Both the position numbers and the translations under genes were made by a program. The notes under the pieces are model-generated. The model was not told the origin of the DNA and did not search any database. It worked only from the letters and a program-made list of their open reading frames with translations. A stretch of DNA of 63,305 nt, filler included. It is 8 parts of 8 records of this genome, joined end to end, with 100 filler letters (N's around TTAATTAATTAA, not from the genome) between each part and the next. Parts side by side here need not be neighbours in the genome. Positions count along the whole stretch, not along the records: positions 35,425 to 44,615 come from SRR31156797_41316; 7 more parts are not named here. One strand, given 5' to 3'. This document shows, piece after piece, positions 7,285-46,875 of the stretch (within the stretch, counting starts at the first letter, position 1; every line of letters begins with the position of its first letter).

Positions 7285-8868
7285 GGTTTTTTTATGGAGA
7301 GAGCATTTTCTCCAATGCCTGATATGGAAGAAGTTTTAAGAGAAAATAATTTACCTATGTTCTCGCTAGAATCAAAAACTCCTCTAAAAGAATTTGATGT
7401 AGTAGGATTTTCATTAGGTTATGAACTTTGTTATACGAATGTTTTAAATACTCTTGATTTAGCGGGAATACCTATAGATAAAGAAGAAAGAACAGAGGAT
7501 GATCCTATAATTCTTGCAGGAGGAACTTGTGTAACGAATCCAAGACCTTTGGAAGATTTTATTGATGTTTTTTCTATTGGAGATGGAGAAGAATCAACAG
7601 AGCAATTAGCTAAAATTTTAGTTGCTAATTCAGATAAAACAAGAAGTGAAAAATTAGAATTAATTAAAGATATAGAAGGAATATATATTCCGAAACTTCA
7701 TAAAGAACAAAGAAGAAAAAAAGCAATACTCAAAGACCTTACAAAAGCTCCTTATATTGGAGAACAAATAGTTCCTTATGTATCAATCGTGCATGATAGA
7801 GCTATGGTAGAGATTCAAAGAGGTTGCACAAGAGGGTGTAGATTCTGCCAGGCTGGAATTATTTACAGACCTGTTAGAGAAAAAACACTTGAAGAAAATT
7901 TAAATACAATAGATAATGCTTTAAGTTCTACAGGATATTCTGAAGTATCACTATCATCATTAAGTAGTAGTGACTATACAAAAATTGGTGGTTTATTAAC
8001 GACACTTCAGGATAAATACGCAGAAGAAAATTTGAGTGTTTCTTTACCTTCGCTTAGAATGAATCCTTATTCTGTTGAAGTGGCTGAGAGTATTCAAACA
8101 GGAAAGAAAACAGGATTTACATTTGCTCCAGAAGCAGGTTCTCAAAGATTGAGAGATATTATAAATAAAGGTGTCGATGAACAGGAGATTTTAGATACAG
8201 CTGTTGCAGCAGTAAAAGCAGGCTGGGATAATTTAAAATTTTATTTTATGATAGGACTGCCATTTGAAACTGATGAGGATATTGTCGGGATACATGAATT
8301 AATTAAAAAAGTAATATATTTTTGCAGACAACATACAAGAAGACTTAATATTACTGTAAGTGTGTCAAATTTTGTGCCAAAACCTCATACACCGTTTCAA
8401 TGGTCAGAACAGATGAATTTTGAAGAGATGGATAGAAAACATAAGCTTCTTAGGGAGTTATTTTATAGAATGAAATACACAGCTTTAAAAATCCATGCGA
8501 AAAAAACGTCATATCTTGAAGGAATAATTTCAAGAGGAGATAAAGAAGTAGGGAAATTAATTAAACTTGCATATGAAAAAGGTTGTAAATTTGATGGATG
8601 GAAAACATACTTTAGATTTGATCTATGGCAAGAGGCTATGGCTGAACTTGGTATGGATGAGAATACTTATTTAGGAGAGAGAAATTTAGAAGTAGAGTTA
8701 CCTTGGGATATAGTAGATATAGGTGTAAATAAAGAATTTATGTTAAGAGAGCTAAAAAAAGCCAAAGAGGAAGCGTTAACTCCGGATTGTAGAGATAATT
8801 GTGTGGGTTGTGGACTAAAAGGCAGATTAGAAGAGTGTGGGAACTTAATAGCTGATAATAAAAACTAA
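7285..8868 (+). CDS. TIGR03960-type B12-binding radical SAM protein (5' truncated)
   Basis: ERAFSP...FSLGYELCYTNVL, CxxxCxxC (GCTRGCRFC), TFAPEAGSQRLR, FVPKPHTPFQW, C-terminal CxxxCxxC. Confidence 0.88.
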   Translation, partial: GFFMERAFSPMPDMEEVLRENNLPMFSLESKTPLKEFDVVGFSLGYELCYTNVLNTLDLAGIPIDKEERTEDDPIILAGGTCVTNPRPLEDFIDVFSIGDGEESTEQLAKILVANSDKTRSEKLELIKDIEGIYIPKLHKEQRRKKAILKDLTKAPYIGEQIVPYVSIVHDRAMVEIQRGCTRGCRFCQAGIIYRPVREKTLEENLNTIDNALSSTGYSEVSLSSLSSSDYTKIGGLLTTLQDKYAEENLSVSLPSLRMNPYSVEVAESIQTGKKTGFTFAPEAGSQRLRDIINKGVDEQEILDTAVAAVKAGWDNLKFYFMIGLPFETDEDIVGIHELIKKVIYFCRQHTRRLNITVSVSNFVPKPHTPFQWSEQMNFEEMDRKHKLLRELFYRMKYTALKIHAKKTSYLEGIISRGDKEVGKLIKLAYEKGCKFDGWKTYFRFDLWQEAMAELGMDENTYLGERNLEVELPWDIVDIGVNKEFMLRELKKAKEEALTPDCRDNCVGCGLKGRLEECGNLIADNKN

Positions 8869-35424: not shown

Positions 35425-35454
35425 GAGTTGCCCCGTCTCTGGTTTTCAAGACCA
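35425..35454 (-). repeat. att site: displaced tRNA-Ser(UGA) fragment (anticodon stem-loop plus variable arm)
   Basis: Minus strand TGGT-CTTGAAA-ACCA-GAGACGGGGCAACTC; tRNA-like sequence stops at the anticodon stem with no D-arm beyond it. Confidence 0.82.
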
Positions 35455-35560
35455 TAGATAAACTTTACCCACTATCCCCAAAAAGCCCTAAGAATCCCCT
35501 TTTATCCGGCAATTTGTCCACCTTGACTTACTCGCTATTCCTCTCTATTTTTGTCCAAGA

Positions 35561-35583
35561 TGTGGGGACTAGCGTGGGGACCA
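35561..35583 (+). repeat. Putative integrase arm-type site (left copy)
   Basis: TGTGGGGACTAGCGTGGGGACCA, 22/23 identical to 44505-44527; internal tandem GTGGGGAC. Confidence 0.72.
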
Positions 35584-35609
35584 TTTGATATCTTTGTCTG
35601 AGCGAGAGC

Positions 35610-36737
35610 ATGGCTAAATATAAACGGCACAAAACGAACTATCCAGGTGTTTACTACATCATGGGTACGCACGTATCCAGCGGCAAGCCAGAACGTGTGT
35701 ACTACATCCGTTATCGGAAAAACGGGAAAATGATCGAGGAAAAAGCAGGCCGCCAGTTTCAAAACGACATGACGCCTGCCAAAGCCTCACGAATCCGTGG
35801 CAAGAGAATTGATGGCGATGAGGTCTCAAACGAAGAGCGCCGCAAAGCCGAGGAAGGCACCTGGAGCCTCGATAAGATATGGGAAGAATACAAGCGCCAA
35901 AACTCACATCTCAAAGGACTCAAAATTGACGCCTATCGATTTAAAAAGCATTTGAAACCTCCCCTTGGACACAAGCCCCCATCAGAAATCTACACAATAG
36001 ATGTAGACCGCCTAAGACTGCGCAAGCTCAAAGGCAAATCTCCACAGTCAATCAAACTTGTCTTGTCCCTCCTCAAAAGGATAATCAACTTTGGGGTAAA
36101 GAAAGGGTTATGCCCTGCTCCCGATCCTGCAAAGCTCCACATAACCATTCCCAAAGTGGATAACACCACCACGGAAGACCTTGCCCCCGACCAGTTGAAA
36201 AAACTACTTAAGACGCTTGATGAGTCAGCAAACCAACCCGTTGCATGCATGATGAAGCTGGCTCTTTACACCGGCATGCGTCGGGGAGAAATGTTCAAGC
36301 TGGAATGGTCTGATATCGACTTTGAAAATGAGTTCATAACGCTACGCAACCCTAAAGGCGGCAAGACGGAATCTATTCCACTCAACGACGCAGCCCGTGA
36401 AGTGCTTGAGAGCTTACCCAAAACGAAGAGCCACTTTGTCTTCCCTGGAAGAGATGGTAAGCAGCGAAAAAATGTCACTCCACAGATCAACAAAATAAAA
36501 AAGAAAGCAGGTCTACCCAAAAATTTTCGACCTCTCCATGGCCTCCGCCACGTATATGCATCGATGCTAGCGAGTTCCGGCCAGGTTGACATGTACATGC
36601 TTCAAAAGCTGCTCACACACAAAAGCGCGGCAATGACTCAAAGGTACGCCCACCTACGAGATGAGGCACTACAAAAGGCTTCCAAAGTGGCAGACGCCTT
36701 AATTACAGAGATTAAGAAGACAGCAAACGAGGATTAA
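35610..36737 (+). CDS. Tyrosine integrase
   Basis: N-terminal arm-binding region; TGMRRGE, K, HGLRH, LTH, TQRY catalytic residues; adjacent to att. Confidence 0.95.
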   Translation: MAKYKRHKTNYPGVYYIMGTHVSSGKPERVYYIRYRKNGKMIEEKAGRQFQNDMTPAKASRIRGKRIDGDEVSNEERRKAEEGTWSLDKIWEEYKRQNSHLKGLKIDAYRFKKHLKPPLGHKPPSEIYTIDVDRLRLRKLKGKSPQSIKLVLSLLKRIINFGVKKGLCPAPDPAKLHITIPKVDNTTTEDLAPDQLKKLLKTLDESANQPVACMMKLALYTGMRRGEMFKLEWSDIDFENEFITLRNPKGGKTESIPLNDAAREVLESLPKTKSHFVFPGRDGKQRKNVTPQINKIKKKAGLPKNFRPLHGLRHVYASMLASSGQVDMYMLQKLLTHKSAAMTQRYAHLRDEALQKASKVADALITEIKKTANED

Positions 36738-36739
36738 AC

Positions 36740-37603
36740 ATGCTCTCAGACAACAGCAAATATCTGCTATTCTGGCTATGGGAGTACACTTGTCGAACTC
36801 CCCAAAACAGGCCTCTTTATGCGAAACTTCTTAAAGCCCTCAAAGAACCTGTTGAACAGCCAGAATCAGTTCAACAAATGCTCAAGAAGGGGTGGCTCGT
36901 CGCTGTCATGGACCTTGGTGGATTCGACTTCAAAGAATGGGGTAATGTCTCCAAGAACTGCGATATCTACAAGAGTTCAGAAGACATCTTACAAGCAATT
37001 ATCGAGGACAGCTTTCGCCACCGCTTCCCATCACCTCAAATCGAATGGCCCGGATTAAACGATCTGCCACTTTCACAAAAACAACTCACAACTATTGTTC
37101 ATGATTCTTTCCCCAATGGGATAGATCGCAATCAAAAACAGAAGGAAATCGCCAGGTGGAAAGAAAAGACTAGTCAAGCAGGAGAACACGGCGGTTTCTA
37201 CTTCATTGACTTCACAAAACCATTGGAAGAAATCCAAGCACGAATTGAATATGAATATAGTATTCATAAAAATCTTATGAATGGCACCGGAATCGAACAC
37301 CTTGACATAGACAACCTCAAAAGCATTGAAATTCAACTAATCGAGCAGTGGGTCAGATCAAAAACAAAAATGAAACGAATCCACTCCTCCAAAGTAATCA
37401 GCCGAGTTATAGGGTTGTGGATGTGGGATTATCAACATGAACACAATGTCATTCCACAACAGGCCATACAGGCTTTCAAAAAAAAGTATGAGTACAAGTT
37501 GCCAGGCAAAGACGATGGGTTCGATTCAGCTGACCTTCGCTACTATCTTCGCCAAACAGACAAATGTATAAACAAGGCTGAAGTCCTTCACTTCTCCAAA
37601 TAG
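36740..37603 (+). CDS. Hypothetical protein coupled to the integrase
   Basis: 287-aa ORF starting 2 nt after the integrase stop; no family recognised. Confidence 0.7.
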   Translation: MLSDNSKYLLFWLWEYTCRTPQNRPLYAKLLKALKEPVEQPESVQQMLKKGWLVAVMDLGGFDFKEWGNVSKNCDIYKSSEDILQAIIEDSFRHRFPSPQIEWPGLNDLPLSQKQLTTIVHDSFPNGIDRNQKQKEIARWKEKTSQAGEHGGFYFIDFTKPLEEIQARIEYEYSIHKNLMNGTGIEHLDIDNLKSIEIQLIEQWVRSKTKMKRIHSSKVISRVIGLWMWDYQHEHNVIPQQAIQAFKKKYEYKLPGKDDGFDSADLRYYLRQTDKCINKAEVLHFSK

Positions 37604-37681
37604 GGAGAATACTGATTCCACTAATCGCCCGCCTTTTAATTATCTTTTTAGATTCTTTTACTCTCCCTTACTGCTTTCCAT

Positions 37682-37715
37682 AAGGTCTCCCTACAGCAAG
37701 GAGGCCTTTTCTTTT
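37682..37715 (+). terminator. Probable terminator after the int operon
   Basis: AAGGTCTCC...GGAGGCCTT followed by TTCTTTT. Confidence 0.55.
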
Positions 37716-37751
37716 GTTTGCTTCGGCTTCCTTCAAACAAACGGAGGCACT

Positions 37752-37940
37752 ATGTCTTTACTCACCGAAAAAGAAACGGCCCAGCGACTCGGAATAAGTA
37801 TTAAGACTCTCCAAGCCCGCAGACTAAACAGACGACAGCCCAGCTATGTGAAAATCGGCCGACTGGTTCGATACAAACCGGAAGTGATTGAGGCGTTCAT
37901 TGCTGAAAACACCGTCAACCTCGACTGTAACGCGGCCTAA
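37752..37940 (+). CDS. AlpA/excisionase-like HTH protein
   Basis: LLTEKETAQRLGIS.KTL..R....PSYVKIGRLVRY; GGAGG RBS. Confidence 0.88.
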   Translation: MSLLTEKETAQRLGISIKTLQARRLNRRQPSYVKIGRLVRYKPEVIEAFIAENTVNLDCNAA

Positions 37941-37945
37941 CCTCT

Positions 37946-38740
37946 ATGCAGCGCGGCTACGTTCGTCTCTGGCGCAAGATACGGGACAAGGCGATCCTTG
38001 AGGATTCAACACTTTGCCAAGTCTTCCTGAAAGCTCTGCTTGATGCTGAATTCAAAAGGACGCAGCGAAGAGTCGGCACGAAGTTTATTGACTTAGAACC
38101 GGGCGAATTTGTCTTTGGCCGCACAGCATGGGCCAGAGCGCTTAATGCCACAGAAAATCAGATACGGACCCGCATAAAGCTACTTGAGCGAATGGGGACT
38201 ATCTCCGCCAGCAAGTACTCCAGCACGTACACCGTGTATAAGTTCAACAATTGGAATACTTACGCGACAAGCGGTGACGCCCCTCACCCGCAAGTCAGTC
38301 AGGAATCAGCCCGCAAGCCGTCGGCATCCCGCCCGCATGTCGCCACATATGAAAAAGAAAAGAAGCTAAGAAACAAAGAAGTGGAGGATACTCACGTATC
38401 CTCTTGTTCGAAGCCTCCAAACGGCTCCGAACCGAATATCATAACCACCCTTCCCCTCAAAGATGGCACCGAATTCGCCATCACCGAAGAATTTGCCCAA
38501 GAGCTTGGGCAACTTTATCGGATACCGGACTTGATGAAATCATTTCGGGCAATGCGGGGTTGGCTCATTGGTAATCCCACAAAACGGAAAACCAATAAAG
38601 GAATCAAACGGTTCATCACTGGTTGGCTCAACAGGGAATTGGATGATGCGACGAGGACCGGCGGGAGAAAGGTAATCAATATGCCCCGCCACACACAGAA
38701 CAACCTCGCGGTTATCAACAAGCTCCTTGAGGAGGACTGA
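37946..38740 (+). CDS. Phage replication initiator (lambda O/DnaD-like)
   Basis: GYVRLWRKI N-terminal wHTH, low-complexity linker with DNA repeats, C-terminal WL..NP.KRKT..GIKRFI..WL.RE. Confidence 0.75.
   Translation: MQRGYVRLWRKIRDKAILEDSTLCQVFLKALLDAEFKRTQRRVGTKFIDLEPGEFVFGRTAWARALNATENQIRTRIKLLERMGTISASKYSSTYTVYKFNNWNTYATSGDAPHPQVSQESARKPSASRPHVATYEKEKKLRNKEVEDTHVSSCSKPPNGSEPNIITTLPLKDGTEFAITEEFAQELGQLYRIPDLMKSFRAMRGWLIGNPTKRKTNKGIKRFITGWLNRELDDATRTGGRKVINMPRHTQNNLAVINKLLEED
38287..38380 (+). promoter_or_regulatory. Putative iteron replication origin inside the initiator gene
   Basis: CCCGCAAGTC (38287), CCCGCAAGCC (38310), CCCGCATGTC (38332), then an A-rich tract at 38351-38380. Confidence 0.62.
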
Positions 38741-38742
38741 CT

Positions 38743-39375
38743 ATGGATTGGACCAACAAGGATGATCGAACCTCATTTCTAACCGCCTTCGGTAGCCTGA
38801 GCGAGATATTCGGAAAGGAATTCTCTGAATTCTCAGCCAAGGCATACTTCAAGGCTTTGTCCTCCCACCCTGTGCGGAATGTGGTCAACGCAATCGAAAA
38901 AGCAATCATTCGCTGCCGGTTCTTCCCCAAGCCGGTTGAGCTCTTGGAATTCCTTGAAGGGACGCCGGAGGACCAAAAAATTAAGGCCGAAGGTAAAGCA
39001 CGGGAAGTGCTCATGGCTGTCCGCCGGTACGGAGCATATGCCAACGTCCTTTTCCCTGATCCTGTCACCAATGCAATTCTCCGCCAATATTTCGGAGGCT
39101 GGATTGCGGTATGTGCCACACGCGAAGACGCGCACAAATGGTTCATCAAAGATTTTGCTGATCGCTACGCTGAATACAAAGCGAACGGCATTGAGGACAC
39201 GGAACCGCTGCGGGGAATTGGAACAAGCCCTATCGTTGAATACGTCGGAGGTACTCATCGCCCGGCCCTGATCGGAAAAAGACAGCAGGAAGTCAAGCAG
39301 TTGGCAACCGGCCTCGGCAAAGAATTGAGCAGCCGTAGCCGAGCACCCAGCACACAGGCCGCGAGAAAGGCCTAG
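38743..39375 (+). CDS. Phage replication accessory protein (DUF6475 / helicase loader-inhibitor-like)
   Basis: F...F..L.E.FGK, Y..AL, FFPKP.EL, V...V.RYG.Y..V.F.DP, GGW..C, WF.KDF...Y; directly follows the initiator. Confidence 0.65.
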   Translation: MDWTNKDDRTSFLTAFGSLSEIFGKEFSEFSAKAYFKALSSHPVRNVVNAIEKAIIRCRFFPKPVELLEFLEGTPEDQKIKAEGKAREVLMAVRRYGAYANVLFPDPVTNAILRQYFGGWIAVCATREDAHKWFIKDFADRYAEYKANGIEDTEPLRGIGTSPIVEYVGGTHRPALIGKRQQEVKQLATGLGKELSSRSRAPSTQAARKA

Positions 39376-39633
39376 AGAGGGTTCAATTCTTGTTTCTCAT
39401 AACAACTTGAAGCTGGGAGCGGGCGAAGGCCTCAAATTGCGGAACAAAGCAAATATGAGCGGAATTTATAGCATTCGGAAAAGACACACAAAAACACAGG
39501 AAACGCCCAAAAACCATGATTCAAACAATTTCAAGACATTAAGCATGTTTCACAGAGGTTTCCGAACGTTTTTTTACAGTTGTTAGCCACCCAAGGAAGT
39601 AGGTTTCTCCACACACATTACACGAAGGAAAAA

Positions 39634-40272
39634 ATGAAAGGCTGTAGACCACTCTCCCAAAGGGAGATTCACCGAATTTTAAACTCTTTCACCGGACGCA
39701 ATCGGCTCCGCAATCGAGCTCTGTTCGTCCTTGGCGCGACATGCGGCTTTCGAATTCAGGAACTCCTTTCGCTACGAGTCAAAGACGTTGTATTGGAGGG
39801 CCAAATGGTGGACCGGGTGACCGTCCAGAAGCGGAACATGAAGGGCTCCATTGAATCCCGCAATGTAGTTCTCCTCAATGTGGCCCGCACAGCCGTTCTT
39901 GACTGGATCACATCCGGCCTCTGGGAACGCGGCTATGTTTCGCCTGAAACATTCCTTTTCCGATCTGAGTACGGATTAAATCAACCGATATCCCCACAAC
40001 ATGCTCACCGTGTTCTTTCGCACAACTACAAGCGAAACCACCTGTCCGGGAAACTTGGCACCCACACCATGCGAAAAACCTACGCGAAATTCCTTTATGA
40101 GGACGCCCAAGAGCGCCGGGGCCAGGGAGAAGCTATCGACCCGCTCCCGCTTGTCTCGAAGGCGCTTGGCCACAAGTCTCTCAACAGCACCATGTCTTAC
40201 CTTTCATTCATGACCGAGGACATCGACATATCAGCCGCAAACTACGAACGCAGAATCTTTGGAGGTCTGTGA
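39634..40272 (+). CDS. Small catalytic-domain-only tyrosine recombinase
   Basis: MKGCRPLS start behind a GAAGGAA RBS; RNRALF, GFRIQE, THTMRKT, LGH, TMSYL. Confidence 0.88.
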   Translation: MKGCRPLSQREIHRILNSFTGRNRLRNRALFVLGATCGFRIQELLSLRVKDVVLEGQMVDRVTVQKRNMKGSIESRNVVLLNVARTAVLDWITSGLWERGYVSPETFLFRSEYGLNQPISPQHAHRVLSHNYKRNHLSGKLGTHTMRKTYAKFLYEDAQERRGQGEAIDPLPLVSKALGHKSLNSTMSYLSFMTEDIDISAANYERRIFGGL

Positions 40273-40463
40273 TGCAACAATATCGTACGGTCAAAATGCT
40301 GGCCGAGGAACTGAGTGTACACCCTGACACCATTTATCGCATGTGCGAACGGCGGGAGATTCCTCACCACCGCATACGCGGTCGAATCCGGTTCAGCCCG
40401 GAGCACGTCAAGGCGTTGAAAAAAGCAACCCGCGTTCCCGCTCGAAGGGGAGGAATTCAATGA
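40269..40463 (+). CDS. Second excisionase-like HTH protein
   Basis: TVK.LAEEL.V.PDTIYRM.....IP..RI...IRF; overlaps the recombinase stop. Confidence 0.82.
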   Translation: MMQQYRTVKMLAEELSVHPDTIYRMCERREIPHHRIRGRIRFSPEHVKALKKATRVPARRGGIQ

Positions 40464-40822
40464 ACAATTCACACACCCCCAACGAATTTGCAGTCCACCT
40501 GAACAACCTGGCGGCAACTGTCTACCACGACAACCCGGACGCCGCCCGAACAGCCAAACGGGCAGCAATGATAATTGAACAATGCATGAAAGACATGGCG
40601 ATACTGTTCAAAGTTTTCAAGGAAGCCAACGTTTTCATCAAACACTTTTACTTTGACAACGATTTGCCCAGCGAAATTGCAGATTGGGACCTCGTCCAGA
40701 CGGGACCGTGGACACACGGGAAGCAAGCCGAAGACGCTCTGAAAAATCTGGCTGTTGAAGTTTTCATGACTTGCTCTGAATTAAGGCGACGCGAAGAACG
40801 AATAAACAAACCGATCAACTAA
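40460..40822 (+). CDS. Hypothetical protein
   Basis: ATG at 40460 with GGAGG RBS and ATGA overlap with the previous stop; 120 aa. Confidence 0.65.
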   Translation: MNNSHTPNEFAVHLNNLAATVYHDNPDAARTAKRAAMIIEQCMKDMAILFKVFKEANVFIKHFYFDNDLPSEIADWDLVQTGPWTHGKQAEDALKNLAVEVFMTCSELRRREERINKPIN

Positions 40823-40834
40823 AAGGAATTAATC

Positions 40835-41905
40835 ATGTGCGGTAAATCGAGCAACAACGGCGGAAAAAGCAAAGGCGCAACATCTAGCTTGGGCGGATAC
40901 AGCTTCGGCCATGGTCTCGGTAGCATTGCCGACCAGCGTCGCGCCGAAAACAGGACGGCAATGAATCAAGGAATAAATATCAGTAACAGCCCCGGATTTC
41001 AAAGTCGCGGCCTTGAGCACACGTCATCAATGGGAGGACCAACTAAAACACCTCAGGCGCAAATCAAACCTCAAGGCGTTCTCATGACTCCAACGCCCGT
41101 CTCCAAACCTCGTATGACAAGCGTTTTTGGGACCATGGGAATTGATAACATCAAAGAAACAGAAGATGCATTCGAAGGCACTGGATTTATGGGACTTGGA
41201 AAAAAAGGCTCGATCAATGTTCCGGATGATTATGGTTGGGACTTTACCGCAAACAAAGCAATTGGGACCGAACCATCTTGGAGTGCAAACCGTTCCTTAC
41301 CGGGCAAGGCGCGAGATATGGTCGCCAAGGCTATTGGAAGCCCCTACGACAGAGACGTAACAGCAGATCGAGCTAGGGATATGCTTTCGAGGGGAAAAGG
41401 CACACTTTCAACCTGGACGGAGGGCCTTCAGGAAGGGAACTACCAGTACGACAAGGCAGGAAATCCAACTGAGGACAAATTAGGCAGAGCATACGATATG
41501 CTCAGCCCCATCACGGATGTTATCACAGGCAATCCGCTTGGAGCGGTATTCAGCACGGCTTCAGCTATCGACACGGCCATGGATCACAATAAACTTGAAA
41601 AGGCCGGGGTTTTCGGCCAGCCGCTTACTCAGCACGCACCACTGACACGCGGGAGAACACTGCTCTCTCGTACCATGTTCGGTAATGGAGAGAGTGACCA
41701 CGGCCCTTCCATGAAACCTTCACTCAAACCAGCCTTAAAAACTTCCTCCTCAGAAAAGCCAAAGCGTAGGCCTAGACGCGGAAGGGAAACTTTGATGCTG
41801 ACAGGGCCACAAGGAGTAACGAACCCTGCTGAACTGGCTATACGACGGCTCTTTGGCGAGGACGGAAAAAGAAAACCAGTCTTGATGCAAAAGCATTACG
41901 AGTAA
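40835..41905 (+). CDS. Gly/Ser/Thr-rich protein with podovirus small-virion-protein-like termini
   Basis: AAGGA RBS; N-terminal MCGKSS; C-terminal RRGRETLMLTGPQGVTNPAELAIRRLFG. Confidence 0.6.
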   Translation: MCGKSSNNGGKSKGATSSLGGYSFGHGLGSIADQRRAENRTAMNQGINISNSPGFQSRGLEHTSSMGGPTKTPQAQIKPQGVLMTPTPVSKPRMTSVFGTMGIDNIKETEDAFEGTGFMGLGKKGSINVPDDYGWDFTANKAIGTEPSWSANRSLPGKARDMVAKAIGSPYDRDVTADRARDMLSRGKGTLSTWTEGLQEGNYQYDKAGNPTEDKLGRAYDMLSPITDVITGNPLGAVFSTASAIDTAMDHNKLEKAGVFGQPLTQHAPLTRGRTLLSRTMFGNGESDHGPSMKPSLKPALKTSSSEKPKRRPRRGRETLMLTGPQGVTNPAELAIRRLFGEDGKRKPVLMQKHYE

Positions 41906-41916
41906 CTTTGAATCTG

Positions 41917-41945
41917 TTGCACATTTTCTCGGATATGCTTATATT
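41917..41945 (+). promoter_or_regulatory. Sigma70-type promoter
   Basis: TTGCAC (41917-41922), 17-nt spacer, TATATT (41940-41945). Confidence 0.72.
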
Positions 41946-41949
41946 GTAT

Positions 41950-42142
41950 GTGTGAGGTGATAACATGGGAATACCCGTTAGGGTGGGCCGTGCTGGATTG
42001 GCCCCCAGCGCCTATGCGGGCCTCACATATAAAGGCTGACCTAGGAAACGTCTCCTCTTGGAGCTTGGGTCGCTGGGGGGTGCCGCCCAGCGCCTAGGCA
42101 GCCTACCAAGGAACCCCGTGCAAAAGTGCGGGGTTTTCTTTT
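41950..42142 (+). ncRNA. Candidate structured small RNA (or 24-codon peptide mRNA)
   Basis: Lies between the promoter and the terminator; GC-rich, two multi-stem domains, exact 11-nt repeat CCCAGCGCCTA at 42004 and 42086. Confidence 0.55.
42112..42142 (+). terminator. Intrinsic terminator closing the small transcript
   Basis: AACCCCGTGC-AAAA-GTGCGGGGTT followed by TTCTTTT. Confidence 0.78.
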
Positions 42143-42235
42143 AAGAACCTCCTCCCCCAATTCAAGGGAAAAACAAATTCAAATATACAACGCTAATTTC
42201 CCTTCAAACCGAGGGAAACCCTTTCGCCCTTCAGT

Positions 42236-42355
42236 GCGTCAAGTTAGAGTATACCCTAACTCAACTACTTAAAACTATACTGATTCGCGTCAATTTAGAG
42301 TGTGAAATCTTTTTTCTTGACATGTCGTCAATGCAAGCTTAGAGTCTATCTTAAC
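42236..42355. promoter_or_regulatory. Putative res site of the serine resolvase
   Basis: GCGTCAAGTTAGAGT (42236), GCGTCAATTTAGAGT (42287) and TTAGAGT (42339) immediately upstream of the resolvase, overlapping a TTGACA. Confidence 0.6.
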
Positions 42356-42381
42356 GGAAGACAAAAACGGAGGTTGACACC

Positions 42382-42936
42382 ATGTCAGGTCAGAACATTG
42401 CGTATATTCGAGTTAGCACTCTGGAACAAAATACCGCCCGACAGCTTGACGGGATGGAATTTCACAGAACCTTCACCGACAAGGCAAGCGCAAAGGACAC
42501 CAACCGCCCCGCCTTACGTGATTGTCTGGACTTCGTACGCGAAGGTGACACCCTTCACATTCATTCCATAGATCGCCTCTGTCGCAATCTGCGCGATTGC
42601 CAAGAACTCTTAGACAACCTACTTGCAAAGGGCGTGTCTGTCCGCTTCCATCGCGAAAACCTGACTTTCACCGGCCAAGATGATTCCATGTCTAAGCTCA
42701 TGCTCCAAATGATGGGAGCCTTTGCCGAATTCGAAAGGAACTTATTGAGAGAACGCCAAGCCGAAGGAATTGCCAAGGCCAAGACTGCCGGGAAGTACAA
42801 GGGCCGCAAGCGGGCATTGAGCGAGGATCAAATTAAAGAAATCAAGACACGGCTTAACCATGGTGAAGGCAAGGCGACTCTGGCTGCTGAGTATGGCGTG
42901 AGTCGACAGACGTTGTACGCTACCTTGAAGCGGTAG
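42382..42936 (+). CDS. Small serine recombinase (resolvase/invertase) with C-terminal HTH
   Basis: YIRVST.EQN..RQ, SIDRL.R, AEFER.L.RERQ.EGI, GRK, GVSRQTLY. Confidence 0.95.
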   Translation: MSGQNIAYIRVSTLEQNTARQLDGMEFHRTFTDKASAKDTNRPALRDCLDFVREGDTLHIHSIDRLCRNLRDCQELLDNLLAKGVSVRFHRENLTFTGQDDSMSKLMLQMMGAFAEFERNLLRERQAEGIAKAKTAGKYKGRKRALSEDQIKEIKTRLNHGEGKATLAAEYGVSRQTLYATLKR

Positions 42937-43040
42937 TAATTTGCCACAAACAACCAAATGACATTATTAATATTGTCGGGAAACGTTTCGGACGTGTGCG
43001 CGACGCCTCTTTTTGAGTAGCACGTGGCGTCCCGGCAACA

Positions 43041-43068
43041 AAAAGGCGACTCAATCAGAGTCGCCTTT
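43041..43068. terminator. Bidirectional terminator between resolvase and Xre gene
   Basis: AAAGGCGACTC-AATCA-GAGTCGCCTTT perfect 11-bp stem. Confidence 0.7.
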
Positions 43069-43267
43069 ATCTTTTCTGGCTGAACAAATCCTTCACCCTC
43101 ACCCCAAGGATATCCGCGATCCGCTCTAGGGTATTCAAAGTGCACTTCTCGACAAGCTCCCCACGGGCGCGGTGGACCGTACCTGAAGACAGGCCGGTAA
43201 TCTGGACCAGCTTACGAATGGAGACACCTTTTTTCTCCATCAACTCTTTGACGTTGCTTTCGATCAT
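43067..43267 (-). CDS. Xre/Cro-C1-type HTH regulator (66 aa)
   Basis: MIESNVKELMEKKGVSIRKL..TGLS.GTV.R, TL.TLERIA..LGV.V.DLF; start re-called at ATG 43267. Confidence 0.85.
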   Translation of the reverse strand: MIESNVKELMEKKGVSIRKLVQITGLSSGTVHRARGELVEKCTLNTLERIADILGVRVKDLFSQKR

Positions 43268-43286
43268 ATTCGCCTTCTCACCCCTT

Positions 43287-43344
43287 TGACTTAATATATT
43301 GACACAGATTGATTTAGATTGGTATGAGTTAATATATTGAGTCA
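43287..43344. promoter_or_regulatory. Paired operator-like palindromes in a divergent promoter region
   Basis: TTAATATATTGA at 43291 and 43329, near-palindromic; the first overlaps TTGACA at 43299. Confidence 0.62.
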
Positions 43345-43369
43345 TGGTAGATTTTAAACAGGAGGATTT

Positions 43370-43705
43370 ATGCAGGACATTATGCCAACTTACAGCCATC
43401 GCCCAGAAGAAGCAGGCGCAAATCATTTATGCTCATTGCGCTGCCTGCTTGAATACGTAAACGATCAAGCCATAGACGATTCAAACGCACCGCTGATCGG
43501 GATAACCGAAGCGGCCTTGGCTCTACTTGAAAAAATTAGAAGTGACATTGAAAAAGAAATGGCCCCCCTCAAAGGCTTGAACATTGTTCGCTACAACAAA
43601 TCCCAAGAGAACGTTTGCGCAGGAGTCGCAAACAAATTCATCGGATTTGAAGTGCAAGAAGACGCCAACTTTGACATTAAACTCAAGGAGGACCTTCATG
43701 CCTAA
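43370..43705 (+). CDS. Hypothetical protein
   Basis: AGGAGG RBS; 111 aa; divergent from the Xre gene. Confidence 0.68.
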   Translation: MQDIMPTYSHRPEEAGANHLCSLRCLLEYVNDQAIDDSNAPLIGITEAALALLEKIRSDIEKEMAPLKGLNIVRYNKSQENVCAGVANKFIGFEVQEDANFDIKLKEDLHA

Positions 43706-43940
43706 ATACGATAACTACGAACCGACACTGCCCACCTGTAGCGATCCGATTTTAGAGCTATATTCAATTCAGCACGCGGTAGCTGCACTTAGCGAACAAC
43801 TCAACTCCCAAGAACAACTAGGTGAAGCATACATGGCCCTTCTTATCAGCAAAGCCCTAGAGGCTGTTGCAGGAAAAATGGATAATGAAGACTGGAAGCA
43901 AGCAAACGAGCCTCCGTGCAAAGTCCATGCGCTTGGCTAG
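43698..43940 (+). CDS. Hypothetical protein
   Basis: AAGGAGG RBS before ATG 43698; 80 aa; overlaps the previous stop. Confidence 0.65.
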   Translation: MPKYDNYEPTLPTCSDPILELYSIQHAVAALSEQLNSQEQLGEAYMALLISKALEAVAGKMDNEDWKQANEPPCKVHALG

Positions 43941-43947
43941 AAACACC

Positions 43948-43974
43948 AAAGGCGGCCCGGACAGGCCGCCTTTT
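43948..43974. terminator. Bidirectional terminator
   Basis: AAAGGCGGCC-CGGACA-GGCCGCCTTTT between convergent ORFs. Confidence 0.72.
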
Positions 43975-44309
43975 CATTTGCCAAGTAGGGATTTGTAATA
44001 GTCATTTACCTGCGTGGCCAAGTTACGCCGCTGAGTTTCGGCCTCTTCTCGCGTGTCCCAAGCATCGTAAACAATCTGCGAATTATCTTTGGGACGATAA
44101 TCGACTCTGGAATCAGTCAGCATAACCGGGAAACCCCATAAAGGGACATGTGATCCATCTTCAATTTCCAAAAATGCAATTCCCTCGTAGACTTGACCTA
44201 TCATGATAATTTTGGCGATCGGGACAAGGGAACCTGATAGGTTTACCAAATAATCAAATTCAGGATCGTCGGATTCGTATTCAACAACGGATTCAAATTT
44301 GGGTGACAT
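43974..44309 (-). CDS. Hypothetical protein
   Basis: AAGGAGGT RBS; acidic 111 aa. Confidence 0.65.
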   Translation of the reverse strand: MSPKFESVVEYESDDPEFDYLVNLSGSLVPIAKIIMIGQVYEGIAFLEIEDGSHVPLWGFPVMLTDSRVDYRPKDNSQIVYDAWDTREEAETQRRNLATQVNDYYKSLLGK

Positions 44310-44504
44310 GGGCTACCTCCTTTGCGCAAAGGATAACATACCCATTCAAAGGAGAATTAGGGAAATAAGACATACAAAATGCCCACGCCCCATATCCTTG
44401 AATACACGCTATGATACAACAGCAGAATTGAAAGAGCCTTGTTAAGTGAGCAAATTATAATTCAAATTTTGATCTTGCCACTCAAATGACAATTTAGCCT
44501 TACC

Positions 44505-44527
44505 TGTGGGGACTAGAGTGGGGACCA
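44505..44527 (+). repeat. Putative integrase arm-type site (right copy)
   Basis: TGTGGGGACTAGAGTGGGGACCA, direct repeat of 35561-35583. Confidence 0.72.
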
Positions 44528-44545
44528 CTTTTCAATCAGCAACAG

Positions 44546-44577
44546 AAAAGGGCTTGCCTCATTCGAGACAAGCCCTT
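44546..44577 (-). terminator. Terminator downstream of the tRNA 3' end
   Basis: AAGGGCTTG...CAAGCCCTT stem with a T-run on the minus strand, just after CCA. Confidence 0.75.
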
Positions 44578-44585
44578 GATATTAC

Positions 44586-44615
44586 TGGCGGAGAGGAGAG
44601 GATTCGAACCTCCGG
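44586..44615 (-). tRNA. 3' end of tRNA-Ser (truncated; att site)
   Basis: Minus strand CCGGAGGTTCGAATCCTCTCCTCTCCGCCA: T-arm, acceptor stem, discriminator G and CCA. Confidence 0.88.
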
Positions 44616-44952: not shown

Positions 44953-46431
44953 TCAGCCTCCCACCAGGTAGGACGGTTTGTCGTCGATACCGGCAGCACC
45001 CTCGAGGACATCGGCAATCCGCAACACCGTCTCCTCGTCGAACGGCTTGCCGACGATCTGAAGTCCAAGCGGCAATCCGTCGTCGCTGTAACCGGCCGGA
45101 ACAGAAACACCCGGAAGTCCGGCCAGGCTGCTGGGAACCGTAAAAACGTCATTGAGGTACATGGCGATCGGATCGTCCATCTTTTCGCCGATGGCAAAGG
45201 CGGCCGACGGCGCCGTCGGGGTCAATACGGCATCGACCTTTTCAAAGGCATCCTGAAAATCCTTGGAGATCAACGCCCGAACCCTTTGCGCCTTGATGTA
45301 ATAGGCGTCGTAGTAGCCGGCGCTCAGCACGTAGGTGCCAATCAGAATTCGGCGGCGAACCTCGGCTCCGAAACCGTCGCCTCGCGTGTTTTCATACATT
45401 TCGTCCAGGCTGTCGCCGGGAACCCGAAGGCCATAGCGCACGCCGTCGTATCGGGCCAGGTTCGACGAGGCTTCGGCCGGCGCGATGATGTAGTAGGTCG
45501 GCAACGCGTATTTCGTATGCGGCAGCGAAATATCGACCGGTTCGGCTCCGGCATCCTTCAGCCAGGCGACGCCTTGCTGCCAGAGATCATCGATTTCCCT
45601 GGGCATGCCGTCGACCCGGTACTCGGACGGAATGCCGATTTTCATTCCACGGATGTCGCCGGTCAGGGCGGCCGCGAAATCGGGCACATCGATCGGTGCC
45701 GAGGTCGAATCCTTCGGATCGTGCCCAACCATGGCGCCCAGCATGATCGCCGCGTCCCGCACCGTACGGGTCATCGGACCGGCTTGATCGAGACTTGACG
45801 CAAAGGCGACAATGCCCCAGCGCGAACAGCGCCCGTAGGTCGGCTTGAAACCGACGATCCCGCAAAAAGACGCCGGCTGCCGGATGGAGCCACCGGTATC
45901 GGTGCCGGTTGCCGCCATGCAAAGATGGGCCGCGACTGACGAGGCCGACCCGCCGGACGATCCGCCCGGAACCCGGTCCTTGCCGTCGGCGACTTTCCAC
46001 GGATTGATGACGTTGCCGTGATAGCTGGTGATGTTGGCGGACCCCATGGCAAACTCATCCATGTTGGCCTTGCCGAGCATGACCGCCCCGGCATCCCGCA
46101 GATTCTGCGACACGGTCGATTCGTAAGGCGGCTTGAAGCCGTCCAGGATGTGGGACCCGGCGGTCGTCAACACGCCTTCGGTACAAAACAGATCCTTGAC
46201 GGCGATGGGAATGCCGTCCATCGGACCGACCGCATCGCCCTTTTTCCGGCGTTCGTCCGACAGTTTGGCCCGATCGCGGGCGATGTCCGGGGTTTCGGTA
46301 ACGAACGCATTGAGGTCTCGCGCGGCCTCGATCGCCTTGATATGCGCGTCGGTCAACTCAAGCGCCGTGAATTCGCCGCCGGCCAAACCCTTGGCGGCAT
46401 CGGCGATGGTCAGGTCGGTTAATTTTGCCAT
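44953..46431 (-). CDS. gatA: Asp/Glu-tRNA amidotransferase subunit A
   Basis: [41 protein letters not shown]. Confidence 0.97.
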
Positions 46432-46718
46432 CACTCGACCACCTTCGGCACGGTAAAGAACCCCTGTTCGGGATCAGGCGCATTGGCCAACACACGGTCT
46501 TGGCAATTTCCGTCCGTCACCTCATCAGCACGGCGGAAAAGCGACATATCCGCGACGCTGGCAATCGGCTCGACACCATCGGTATTCACTTCGTTCAACT
46601 GCTCGACCCAACCGATGATGTTCGAAAGTTCGTCGGCCAGATGCTGAAGATCGGAGTCCGGAACCTTGATCCGGGCCAGAAACGCAATGTTCCGTACGGT
46701 ATCTGTGTCGAGAGACAT
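46431..46718 (-). CDS. gatC: Asp/Glu-tRNA amidotransferase subunit C
   Basis: MSLD..TV..IA.LARI, LNEV.T.GVEP, FF.VPKVVE; start re-called at 46718. Confidence 0.95.
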
Positions 46719-46875
46719 TTTTTCTTCTCCGTGTGGCGGGCCATCCTGCGCTTGGAACCCGGCCAAAACCCGCAATGATGCGGCGCGGAAAGTAACACCC
46801 GAAATCGTCGGGTTGCAACCCGCATCGGGAACCATGACAGCTTAAAACGAAGAGATGGCGCAATCGTCTCGATGA

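Follow-up and report, generated by a model that had tools for sequence, protein, structure and literature searches.

A fully bounded, phage-derived integrative element of the satellite or tycheposon kind from marine metagenomes

The window analysed here is a stretch of DNA of 63,305 nucleotides that consists of eight unrelated contigs joined end to end; positions are counted along it unless another contig is named. One of these contigs, located at 35425–44615, is a self-replicating integrative element that derives from a phage and belongs in kind with satellites or tycheposons. Our leading interpretation, put forward tentatively, is that of an element of about 9.1 kb inserted into a tRNA-Ser(UGA) gene at its 3′ part and derived from the early region of a temperate tailed phage. 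The complete pair of attachment (att) sites, the intact genes under selection, and the recurrence in several samples indicate an autonomous integrative and replicative element, not a decaying remnant. The element probably needs outside help to spread, perhaps that of a helper phage. No defined satellite family has a comparable list of parts, which here comprises O/P replication, three recombinases, an Xre switch, a candidate RNA, and two hypervariable slots.

The element is exactly one contig of 9191 bases, flanked by spacers, each of which consists of two runs of 44 N around TTAATTAATTAA. The G+C content of the eight joined contigs ranges from about 0.25 to 0.63. Since they are unrelated, the neighbouring contigs give no context and indicate nothing about the host of the element; none of the other seven resembles it in DNA and protein comparison.

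In the window as given, ARAGORN detects no tRNA. When the last and the first bases of the contig are joined in a script, the program recognises, on the minus strand, a gene resembling tRNA-Ser(tga) that is composed of the last 30 and the first 55 bases; its T, variable, and anticodon arms are good, and its acceptor and D arms are poor. Public metagenome contigs from four runs (X1–X4) were placed on the stretch. Run X1, the probable source, contains an identical contig of 9191 bases at a depth of 105. Contigs spanning the junction of the last and the first base carry two extra letters (AC) between them, and other contigs diverge exactly behind 35454 and before 44585/44586. The att repeat has a length of 62 bases (30 + 2 + 30) and covers tRNA-Ser(UGA) between its anticodon stem and its CCA end, and the contig carries its last 30 and first 30 bases. 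The right-hand 30-mer is common to several contigs of run X1. Behind 35454, a loose end present in X1 and X2 looks by eye like the true 5′ half of the tRNA, and the first seven bases of its reverse complement pair with the acceptor 3′ strand at the right end of the contig.

In an assembly graph with k = 31, a unit lying between att copies gives a contig that ends in halves of the repeat. The contig is a complete integrative unit bounded att to att, as a preliminary description made from the sequence alone had proposed; the two halves of the tRNA-Ser repeat at its ends bear this out. An integrated copy (attL/attR) and a circle (attP) would both yield this contig, which is no proof of circularity. 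The core is flanked by a direct repeat of 26 bases (D3), with copies at 35561 and 44505 that are 92% alike and each contain GTGGGGAC twice. These repeats are probably arm-type sites to which the integrase would bind.

The profile libraries Pfam, PHROGs, NCBIfam, and PADLOC were scanned, the last one with ten element proteins. Pfam families were matched by seven of the 16 frames scanned, and all fourteen frames taken as genes are open. Every item on the earlier gene list is present according to family searches and open frames. The features are as follows (lengths in amino acids, aa; HTH, helix-turn-helix; E-values in brackets):

35425–35454, minus strand: left att core copy (last 30 bases; variable and anticodon arms of tRNA-Ser(UGA)), located with ARAGORN and by the branching of contigs in X1 and X2; 30-mer unique in the window.
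35561–35586, plus strand: left arm-type repeat (D3, left of int), probable integrase or Xis site.
35610–36737, plus strand: tyrosine integrase (int), 375 aa, inward-facing (Phage_integrase, 9.7e-34; phrog_1, 6e-63).
36740–37603, plus strand: 287-aa protein, starting 2 bases past the int stop; no family in Pfam, PHROGs, NCBIfam, or PADLOC.
37752–37940, plus strand: HTH_17 (AlpA/excisionase-type) regulator, 62 aa (PF12728, 2.6e-7; 31.2 bits, cut-off 27).
37946–38740, plus strand: replication initiator (O/DnaD-like), 264 aa (phrog_2514 "DnaD-like helicase loader", 1.3e-21; phrog_345 "replication initiation O-like", 6.7e-4).
38743–39375, plus strand: DUF6475 protein in the "P" position (PF20081, 4e-9; phrog_10105, 1.8e-28).
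39634–40272, plus strand: small tyrosine recombinase, catalytic domain only, 212 aa from ATG (230 aa as a frame from 39580) (Phage_integrase, 6.2e-17).
40269–40463, plus strand: excisionase-like HTH_17 protein, 64 aa, overlapping the recombinase stop (PF12728, 4.6e-11; phrog_66, 2.6e-8).
40460–40822, plus strand: 120-aa orphan (159 aa as a frame from 40343); no family in Pfam, PHROGs, NCBIfam, or PADLOC.
40835–41905, plus strand: 356-aa protein of a rare family (phrog_831, 2e-5, on residues 304–341).
41947–42143, plus strand: candidate small structured RNA of about 190 nucleotides (fold z of −4.75; promoter-like site).
42236–42355, plus strand: res-like site with GTCAAKTTAGAG half-sites (two exact copies, inverted partners).
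42382–42936, plus strand: small serine recombinase (resolvase/invertase), 184 aa (Resolvase, 5.4e-36; HTH_7, 3.1e-11; phrog_125 "DNA invertase", 4.4e-60).
43067–43267, minus strand: Xre/Cro-C1-type repressor, 66 aa from an internal ATG (frame open to 43426) (HTH_26, 1.5e-13).
43286–43347, no strand assigned: operator pair between divergent promoter-like sites (repeat D14).
43370–43940, plus strand: two small orphans in overlapping frames, one of 111 aa and one of about 79–118 aa; no family in Pfam, PHROGs, or PADLOC.
43974–44309, minus strand: 111-aa orphan, directed inward from the right end; no family match; promoter-like site at 44481–44454.
44505–44530, plus strand: right arm-type repeat (D3).
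44586–44615, minus strand: right att core copy (first 30 bases; 3′ acceptor strand of tRNA-Ser, CCA, and T arm), located with ARAGORN; 30-mer unique in the window.

The 111-aa frame at 43370–43940 has no match in NCBIfam or among PDB sequences, and the two rightward orphans of this region are covered at about 96% identity in run X2. The DUF6475 gene and the small recombinase gene are separated by a gap of 258 bases.

The left two-thirds of the element is a tailed, temperate phage's early region, cut off at the point where packaging genes would start. Homologues of the DUF6475 protein were found in 32 phage records, mostly of Vibrio, Aeromonas, and Shewanella phages. In both phages inspected, Shewanella phage X14 and Flyfo siphovirus Tbat2_3, the DUF6475 gene directly follows the initiator gene, which is the place of lambda P, and one of the two records labels its product as "replication protein P". 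We infer that the DUF6475 protein is the helicase-recruiting partner of the initiator. A tblastn search with the initiator revealed 69 phage records, in which the protein is annotated as replisome organiser, DnaD, or O protein. In the X14 genome, an annotated helix-turn-helix gene is located directly before the initiator/DUF6475 pair, as in the element. The direct succession of a small HTH gene, an initiator gene, and a second replication gene is that of a lambda-type O/P module. A search for a replication origin near the replication genes revealed no iterons or tandem repeats.

The small tyrosine recombinase has, by eye, all the expected catalytic residues. Its relatives in IMG/VR number 139 (80 kept), and the best of them, 42–47% identical, are encoded on contigs of 30–47 kb. 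In tailed-phage contigs, these relatives are placed between the replication and the packaging genes. The L021 contig encodes, in order, two methyltransferases, an initiator, a DnaC-like loader, three small frames, the small recombinase, two further small frames, the terminase large subunit, the portal, and the major head protein. In the proviruses L016 and L017, a relative of the initiator C-terminal domain (49–52% identical) lies 2–2.5 kb upstream of the recombinase (46–47% identical), and in L016, the recombinase gene is followed by a gene for a 68-aa excisionase-like HTH protein, as in the element. No likeness to the att core and no tRNA were detected in these two proviruses. The element shares the order HTH, initiator, DUF6475 with the X14 and Tbat2_3 phages, and the initiator C-terminal domain, recombinase, and small HTH with L016 and L017. 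In these phages of 30–50 kb, terminase, connector or portal, head, and lysis genes follow, whereas the element, only 9.2 kb long, has in their stead the 356-aa gene, the RNA region, the resolvase, and the Xre module. None of these four parts has a counterpart in the related phage contigs examined.

Two side observations concern these relatives. An endolysin-like gene (phrog_894, about 5e-10) is located between the initiator and the small recombinase genes at 7299–7868 of L016 and 8505–9086 of L017, which is an unusual place for a lysis gene. The L013 metagenome contig (9565 bases) encodes a DnaD-like initiator with a C-terminal domain related to that of the element; the other four large frames tested (504, 851, 331, and 352 aa) are without a PHROG match, and L013 may be another small element.

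Closer relatives of the element are present in several samples. Homologues of the initiator with 84% identity are encoded on five contigs, the longest of which (15,414 bases) also encodes a 358-aa protein, and one more full-length homologue is 40% identical; a scan of genome contigs with the initiator revealed one distant locus (32% identical). On the short metagenome contigs L002 and L003, the order int, 287-aa gene, HTH, initiator, DUF6475 is retained with 84–92% protein identity, and the L002 integrase is 88.6% identical over 88 aa. The ratios of nonsynonymous to synonymous substitution rates (dN/dS) in comparison with L002 are 0.07 for the HTH gene, 0.12 for the initiator, and 0.16 for the DUF6475 gene; by these values, the replication genes are under purifying selection. 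Most of the backbone is matched at 80–99% identity by contigs of three runs, one from seawater and two from marine sediment. Given relatives in several samples, the element appears as a member of a family, not a one-off.

The best-conserved gene of the backbone is that of the small recombinase, for which 118 homologues were found. The best ten are 65–82% identical (nine of them 72–82%), and five of these ten are encoded on contigs of 4766, 54506, 14436, 6027, and 7321 bases. The sizes of 54506, 14436, 7321, and 6027 bases are also those of contigs with homologues of the 356-aa protein or the initiator, and 4766 bases is the size of an X2 contig placed on the element. The 54.5-kb contig belongs to Pseudodesulfovibrio indicus and encodes both a recombinase (WP_316897514.1) and a homologue of the 356-aa protein (WP_316897520.1); a more distant homologue of the latter is present in P. 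sediminis (BCS87338.1). The host is probably a marine bacterium resembling sulfate reducers, from the Desulfovibrionaceae. The deltaproteobacterial host guessed earlier is reasonable, with two backbone proteins having P. indicus homologues and one a P. sediminis homologue.

No head, tail, packaging, lysis, relaxase, or secretion family was detected at E ≤ 0.01 in Pfam, PHROGs, and NCBIfam, and these three libraries likewise yielded no primase, helicase, or other NTPase family. In PADLOC, nine of the ten proteins are without a family match and no defence family was recorded. The absence of recognisable capsid, portal, terminase, tail, relaxase, and type IV secretion genes, stated in the preliminary description, held in the scans of all four libraries. 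A small-terminase match (E 0.0032) is spurious, as it sits on the HTH of the resolvase, and so is a PADLOC match of the resolvase to HerA (E 0.0038). A megablast search of the contig against phage and plasmid collections gave no match.

The element was compared with the defined families of small mobile elements. According to the part of PMC10085698 consulted, the core components of PICIs (phage-inducible chromosomal islands) are an integrase, an AlpA/MerR/Stl regulator, a primase-replicase, a capsid-morphogenesis gene, and a small terminase. The integrase is present (Phage_integrase, 9.7e-34); for the regulator, there are two HTH_17 (PF12728) proteins, and Phage_AlpA (PF05930) is not among the families at E ≤ 0.01. 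No primase or helicase family was found for the replicase, and the only candidate among capsid-morphogenesis and small terminase genes is the weak match on the resolvase HTH. The genes of capsid-forming PICIs (cf-PICIs), namely own capsid, protease, portal, head–tail connector, and terminase genes, were not found. Of the P4 components, only integrase and HTH proteins were found in Pfam and PHROGs, with no Psu, Delta, Sid, epsilon (Ash), or alpha primase-helicase. Like P4, the element is of similar size, is inserted at a tRNA, has a putative AlpA-type regulator, and has no head or tail genes.

The model of PICMIs (phage-inducible chromosomal minimalist islands), as outlined in the consulted sections of PMC10803314, comprises an integrase, AlpA (PF05930 or PF12728), a DUF3987 or DUF5906 primase, and an integration site beside fis. 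The element has the integrase and the AlpA component (PF00589 and PF12728 above their cut-offs); it has neither DUF3987 nor DUF5906, and its att site is tRNA-Ser. The same sections describe an "iolg" gene of PICMIs that overlaps int and is needed for excision, and PICMIs without a capsid-remodelling or terS gene (PMC10803314). As far as these descriptions go, the element resembles PICIs and PICMIs in the size range of 6–10 kb, the terminal int with a tightly coupled gene, the candidate AlpA/HTH_17-type regulator gene before the replication genes, and the fixed accessory slots. It differs from them in the lambda O/DnaD-type initiator with DUF6475 and in the tRNA-Ser site, and additionally in the small tyrosine and serine recombinases, the Xre switch, the candidate RNA, and the lack of a known helper. 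Thus, with no primase-replicase, terS, capsid-morphogenesis gene, Sid/Psu/Delta, or link to fis, it fits none of the PICI, cf-PICI, P4, and PICMI layouts, as the preliminary description had suggested.

No terminase, portal, major capsid, tail, or lysis genes of a prophage are found within the 9191 bases, and no relaxase, coupling-protein, or type IV secretion family of an integrative conjugative or mobilisable element was found in the Pfam and NCBIfam scans. The layout is equally that of tycheposon-like marine elements. [quoted passage not shown] Excisionase and small serine recombinase are among the hallmark genes listed there, together with cargo slots and a marine habitat (10.1101/2020.12.28.424599). 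The element has an inward int at 35610, a tRNA-Ser core of 62 bases, and replication genes 1 kb downstream of int. Compared by these described features, tycheposons were defined in Prochlorococcus, have their own integrase clade, and replicate by a primase/helicase-type module, whereas the element is of probable Desulfovibrionaceae origin and replicates by an O/P-type module.

A non-coding region of 476 bases (41906–42381) separates the 356-aa gene from the resolvase gene. A promoter-like site (41918–41945) precedes about 190 bases that contain two hairpin domains followed by a terminator hairpin with a T-run. None of 200 shuffles folds as well as the 201-nucleotide sequence, for which the z value given above was obtained, and the two hairpin domains share an exact repeat of 11 bases, CCCAGCGCCTA. 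In a contig of run X4 (marine sediment), the region 41866–42119 has 7 differences in 254 bases and is at least as conserved as its coding flanks. Rfam revealed no match above threshold, and no complementarity above chance to targets within the element was found. The immunity of P4 is controlled by a small RNA, so the candidate at 41947–42143 is worth a look; Rfam includes the C4/CI-type antisense RNA family. As to the structured small transcript proposed earlier, the fold, the promoter-like site, and the terminator hairpin stand, and the transcript itself is plausible, not proven.

Upstream of the resolvase gene, GTCAAKTTAGAG is present in two exact copies, at 42238 and 42289, which are the only ones in the 63-kb window. 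Inverted partners of this sequence are located at 42254 and 42344, and one exact copy has an inverted partner 4 bases away. The array overlaps the promoter-like site of the resolvase gene (42317–42345), and its arrangement supports the layout of a res site with autoregulation; the earlier assignment of res with a serine resolvase agrees with these half-sites. An inverted match of 20 bases between 35918–35937, within int, and 42282–42301, at a res half-site, has 17 of 20 positions paired, and 35919–35930 is the only copy of the half-site with one mismatch in the window. As evidence of an inversion switch this match was discarded, given that, by our estimate, 9 kb of sequence would contain roughly one pair of this quality by chance.

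The Xre gene is directed leftward, ends at a hairpin with a T-run (43042–43068), and faces the two rightward orphans across the operator pair. The D14 repeat that forms this pair consists of two near-palindromic copies of 16 bases, 94% identical and 38 bases apart, between divergent promoter-like sites. The HTH_26 protein and the operator pair between promoter-like sites on both strands support the Xre switch named in the preliminary description.

Two hypervariable slots, 36790–37712 and 40313–40852, can be distinguished, and both immediately follow the gene of a tyrosine recombinase. In the former, the 287-aa protein is only 35% identical to its L002 counterpart, while the flanking genes are 84–89% identical; the likeness of the DNA to L002 ends 50 bases into the 287-aa gene and returns 39 bases before the next gene. 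Both slots are without cover by relatives in runs X2–X4. In a contig of the seawater run X2, 3115 other letters replace the 540 of the second slot. A word search with the 287-aa protein gave no homologue, and Pfam yielded no family for it at E ≤ 10 beyond a chance match. Its AlphaFold2 model is all-helical with a predicted local distance difference test score (pLDDT) of 43.6 and is too poor for a structure search. In ESM Atlas, "hypothetical" clusters were found at 0.95, one of them from Thermodesulfobacteriota. A suspected likeness of its N-terminus to a transcriptional-regulator domain found no support from any tool.

The 356-aa protein belongs to a rare family with 13 representatives at E ≤ 0.001 among 1.84 billion. 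A conserved N-terminus is followed by a folded core (residues 90–260), a C-terminal basic motif, and then LTGxxG. Conservation is mosaic: in comparison with P. sediminis, identity is 65% over the first 57 residues and 26% over the core, whereas the core is 56% identical to that of P. indicus. Of the 12 family members aligned, 10 start with Met-Cys-Gly, without an evident signal peptide. The conserved cysteine at the second position (40835–40843) hints at N-terminal processing or modification. The AlphaFold2 model has a pLDDT of 59.9 overall, with an alpha/beta core at 75–87 between disordered arms. Foldseek found no match to this model at E ≤ 0.001 in BFVD or PDB, and no jelly-roll, HK97-like, or capsid-like match. 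The protein has no tblastn match in phages or plasmids and no PDB sequence match, and the family (12 members) has no Pfam family at E ≤ 1 beyond chance-level matches. ESM Atlas gave weak viral "hypothetical" clusters (0.87) and, at 0.78, a cluster with VirionAssem_T7 in 21% of its members, which is a lead only.

The sole family match of the 356-aa protein is phrog_831 (70 positions, no assigned function), which was found in seven of the 12 members. The "virion-like" label given earlier to this protein was not confirmed and is a lead, as it comes down to a motif of 38 residues. Among ten IMG/VR records with a relative of the small recombinase, phrog_831 is present in two, the same two that have the initiator domain in common with the element. 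Their phrog_831 genes (62 and 94 aa) are located between the genes of the terminase large subunit and a phrog_332 "head-tail adaptor"/connector protein of 484–490 aa. These genes for a Lys/Gly-rich small protein are at the following positions of the two IMG/VR proviruses:

L096, 1456–1740, minus strand: phrog_831 gene.
L097, 1495–1683: phrog_831 gene.

This position suggests that the phrog_831 family is a small head or portal-associated protein. The T7 genes of gp6.7 and gp7.3 sit just before the portal gene; their likeness to the phrog_831 protein is positional only. Both T7 products are small virion proteins, located on the portal and in the tail channel, that are ejected (PMC11784390, in the part consulted). 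The C-terminal motif of the 356-aa protein may be a docking peptide for a partner from a phage head module.

Dependence on a helper phage is plausible, although short of an even chance; it is favoured by the phage-origin backbone, the phrog_831-like motif, and the variable slots. Under this interpretation, the Xre repressor would silence the integrated element. On induction, Int and its HTH partner would excise the element at the core, the initiator and the DUF6475 protein would load the host helicase, and the circle would replicate, with the resolvase turning multimers into monomers. Without transfer genes of its own, the element would exit the cell in particles of the helper. The helper would most likely be a temperate podovirus-like phage of the kind sharing the initiator domain and the small recombinase. 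The 356-aa protein may dock to the head or portal machinery of this phage, and the two slots would hold helper- or host-specific functions.

Several results weigh against helper dependence. Homologues of terS, ppi, sid, psu, and capsid genes were not identified, nor was a cos or pac site. No helper is known, and the other contigs of the window offer no likeness to the element. IMG/VR contains no close relative by the initiator, by an alignment of the 356-aa family with 6 rows, or by the 30-base half of the att core, and the best match of the small recombinase family is 47% identical; these four scans, which address the suggested presence in viromes, give no sign of the family reaching particles. 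A contig of 21.7 kb in X1 that carries the right-hand 30-mer of the core has a depth of 111.7, compared with 105 for the element. The raised coverage named earlier as a check is not seen relative to this candidate flank; the near-equal depth fits one quiet integrated copy per chromosome, with no hint of extra copies or replication in the sample. The resolvase and res are as compatible with a plasmid-like existence as with that of a satellite. The link to phrog_831, a gene seen in so few of the recombinase-bearing records, is at the level of a motif in sequence: hhalign of the 356-aa family with the two phage proteins aligned 20 columns with a probability of 0.46% and E of 0.13; the family profile reaches one of the phage proteins (twice, at overlapping loci) at E 0.12 and does not list the other; and tblastn of the C-terminal 61 aa gave nothing in 50,697 phage records. 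With no packaging-redirection gene, no cos or pac site, no close IMG/VR relative, and the depth of a quiet copy, the reliance on a helper phage claimed in the preliminary description was not substantiated.

The strongest alternative, which we consider somewhat doubtful, is that the element is cryptic, integrates and replicates in the manner of a tycheposon or an integrative plasmid, and has no dedicated helper. Such an element would excise, exist as a plasmid-like circle kept monomeric by the resolvase, and re-integrate at tRNA-Ser; it would be spread only by vesicles, transformation, or generalised transduction, and its slots would hold host-beneficial or selfish cargo. A resolvase with a res site is the classic plasmid device for multimer resolution, and the element has a resolvase with a res-like site. 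It lacks a packaging gene or signal, a close IMG/VR relative, and excess depth, all of which this alternative accommodates. The integrase, replication module, excisionase, serine recombinase, and tRNA-Ser(tga) also match features listed for tycheposons in the consulted part of 10.1101/2020.12.28.424599. However, the replication module and the small recombinase are of phage type, not plasmid type: the small recombinase matches 90 PLSDB records, all of them below 60% identity and the best of those shown at about 30%, and the 356-aa protein has no match there. Moreover, the 356-aa protein has the motif of a phage head-module protein, and the ten proteins scanned in PADLOC are without a defence family.

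The class of the element is affected by this alternative. The proposal of an undescribed satellite class is in keeping with the failure to fit a PICI, P4, or PICMI layout; the same anatomy, however, fits tycheposon-like marine elements as they are described in the text consulted. We regard it as rather unlikely that the element is the first member of a new satellite family in marine sulfate reducers, defined by the O/P module, a head-redirecting 356-aa protein, and RNA plus Xre control. Equally speculative is the corresponding picture in which the MCG N-terminus and the C-terminal motif of the 356-aa protein flank an exchangeable core and the helper is podovirus-like.

A defective prophage remnant, that is, a temperate phage at tRNA-Ser that lost its late genes and persists as decaying immobile cargo, is improbable. 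The alignment of the backbone with a tailed-phage early region that stops where packaging genes begin would be expected of such a remnant, as would a depth about equal to that of the candidate chromosomal flank, and distant relatives of two backbone genes do lie in tailed phages of 30–47 kb, in line with the part of larger prophages that had been named as grounds for rejecting a satellite. Nevertheless, the element is bounded at 9.2 kb, both att copies and the arm repeats are intact, all fourteen gene frames are open, and the dN/dS values of the replication genes (0.07–0.16) are those of purifying selection. Three metagenome runs, independent of one another, contain the backbone at 80–99% identity, and five other contigs carry it at lower identity. 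Absence from the related phage contigs examined marks the 356-aa gene, the RNA region, the resolvase, and the Xre module as gains and not leftovers. A small complete virus with a capsid hidden among the 287-, 356-, and 111–120-aa proteins is highly improbable: six frames are without a family and the 356-aa core has no structural match at E ≤ 0.001 in BFVD and PDB, but no packaging ATPase or other NTPase family was found, the 287-aa protein is all-helical in a low-confidence model and hypervariable, there is no jelly-roll or HK97-like match, and the initiator and 356-aa family scans revealed nothing similar in IMG/VR.

Small integrative "hitchers" unable to move alone may be a large and poorly charted share of bacterial mobile DNA. 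To our knowledge, the well-studied ones are almost all from enterobacteria, staphylococci, vibrios, and cyanobacteria. The present element is a fully bounded example from marine sediment and seawater, probably of the Desulfovibrionaceae. In the literature searched (8.4 million papers), "DUF6475" was not mentioned, and among the papers listed for "Desulfovibrio" with "phage satellite" none appeared relevant by title, supplementary tables being outside this search. Induction by a phage, the functions of the slots, and the 356-aa protein as a new entry to a helper particle are questions that can now be tested, and the P. indicus contig with two backbone homologues may give a strain for this. Even if it is only a cryptic integrative plasmid, the element extends the tycheposon-like lifestyle to an anaerobic lineage.

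In the next contig of the window, which is unrelated to the element, the stretches at 44953–46434 and 46431–46835 look by eye like GatA- and GatC-type amidotransferase genes; the G+C content of that contig is 60%.

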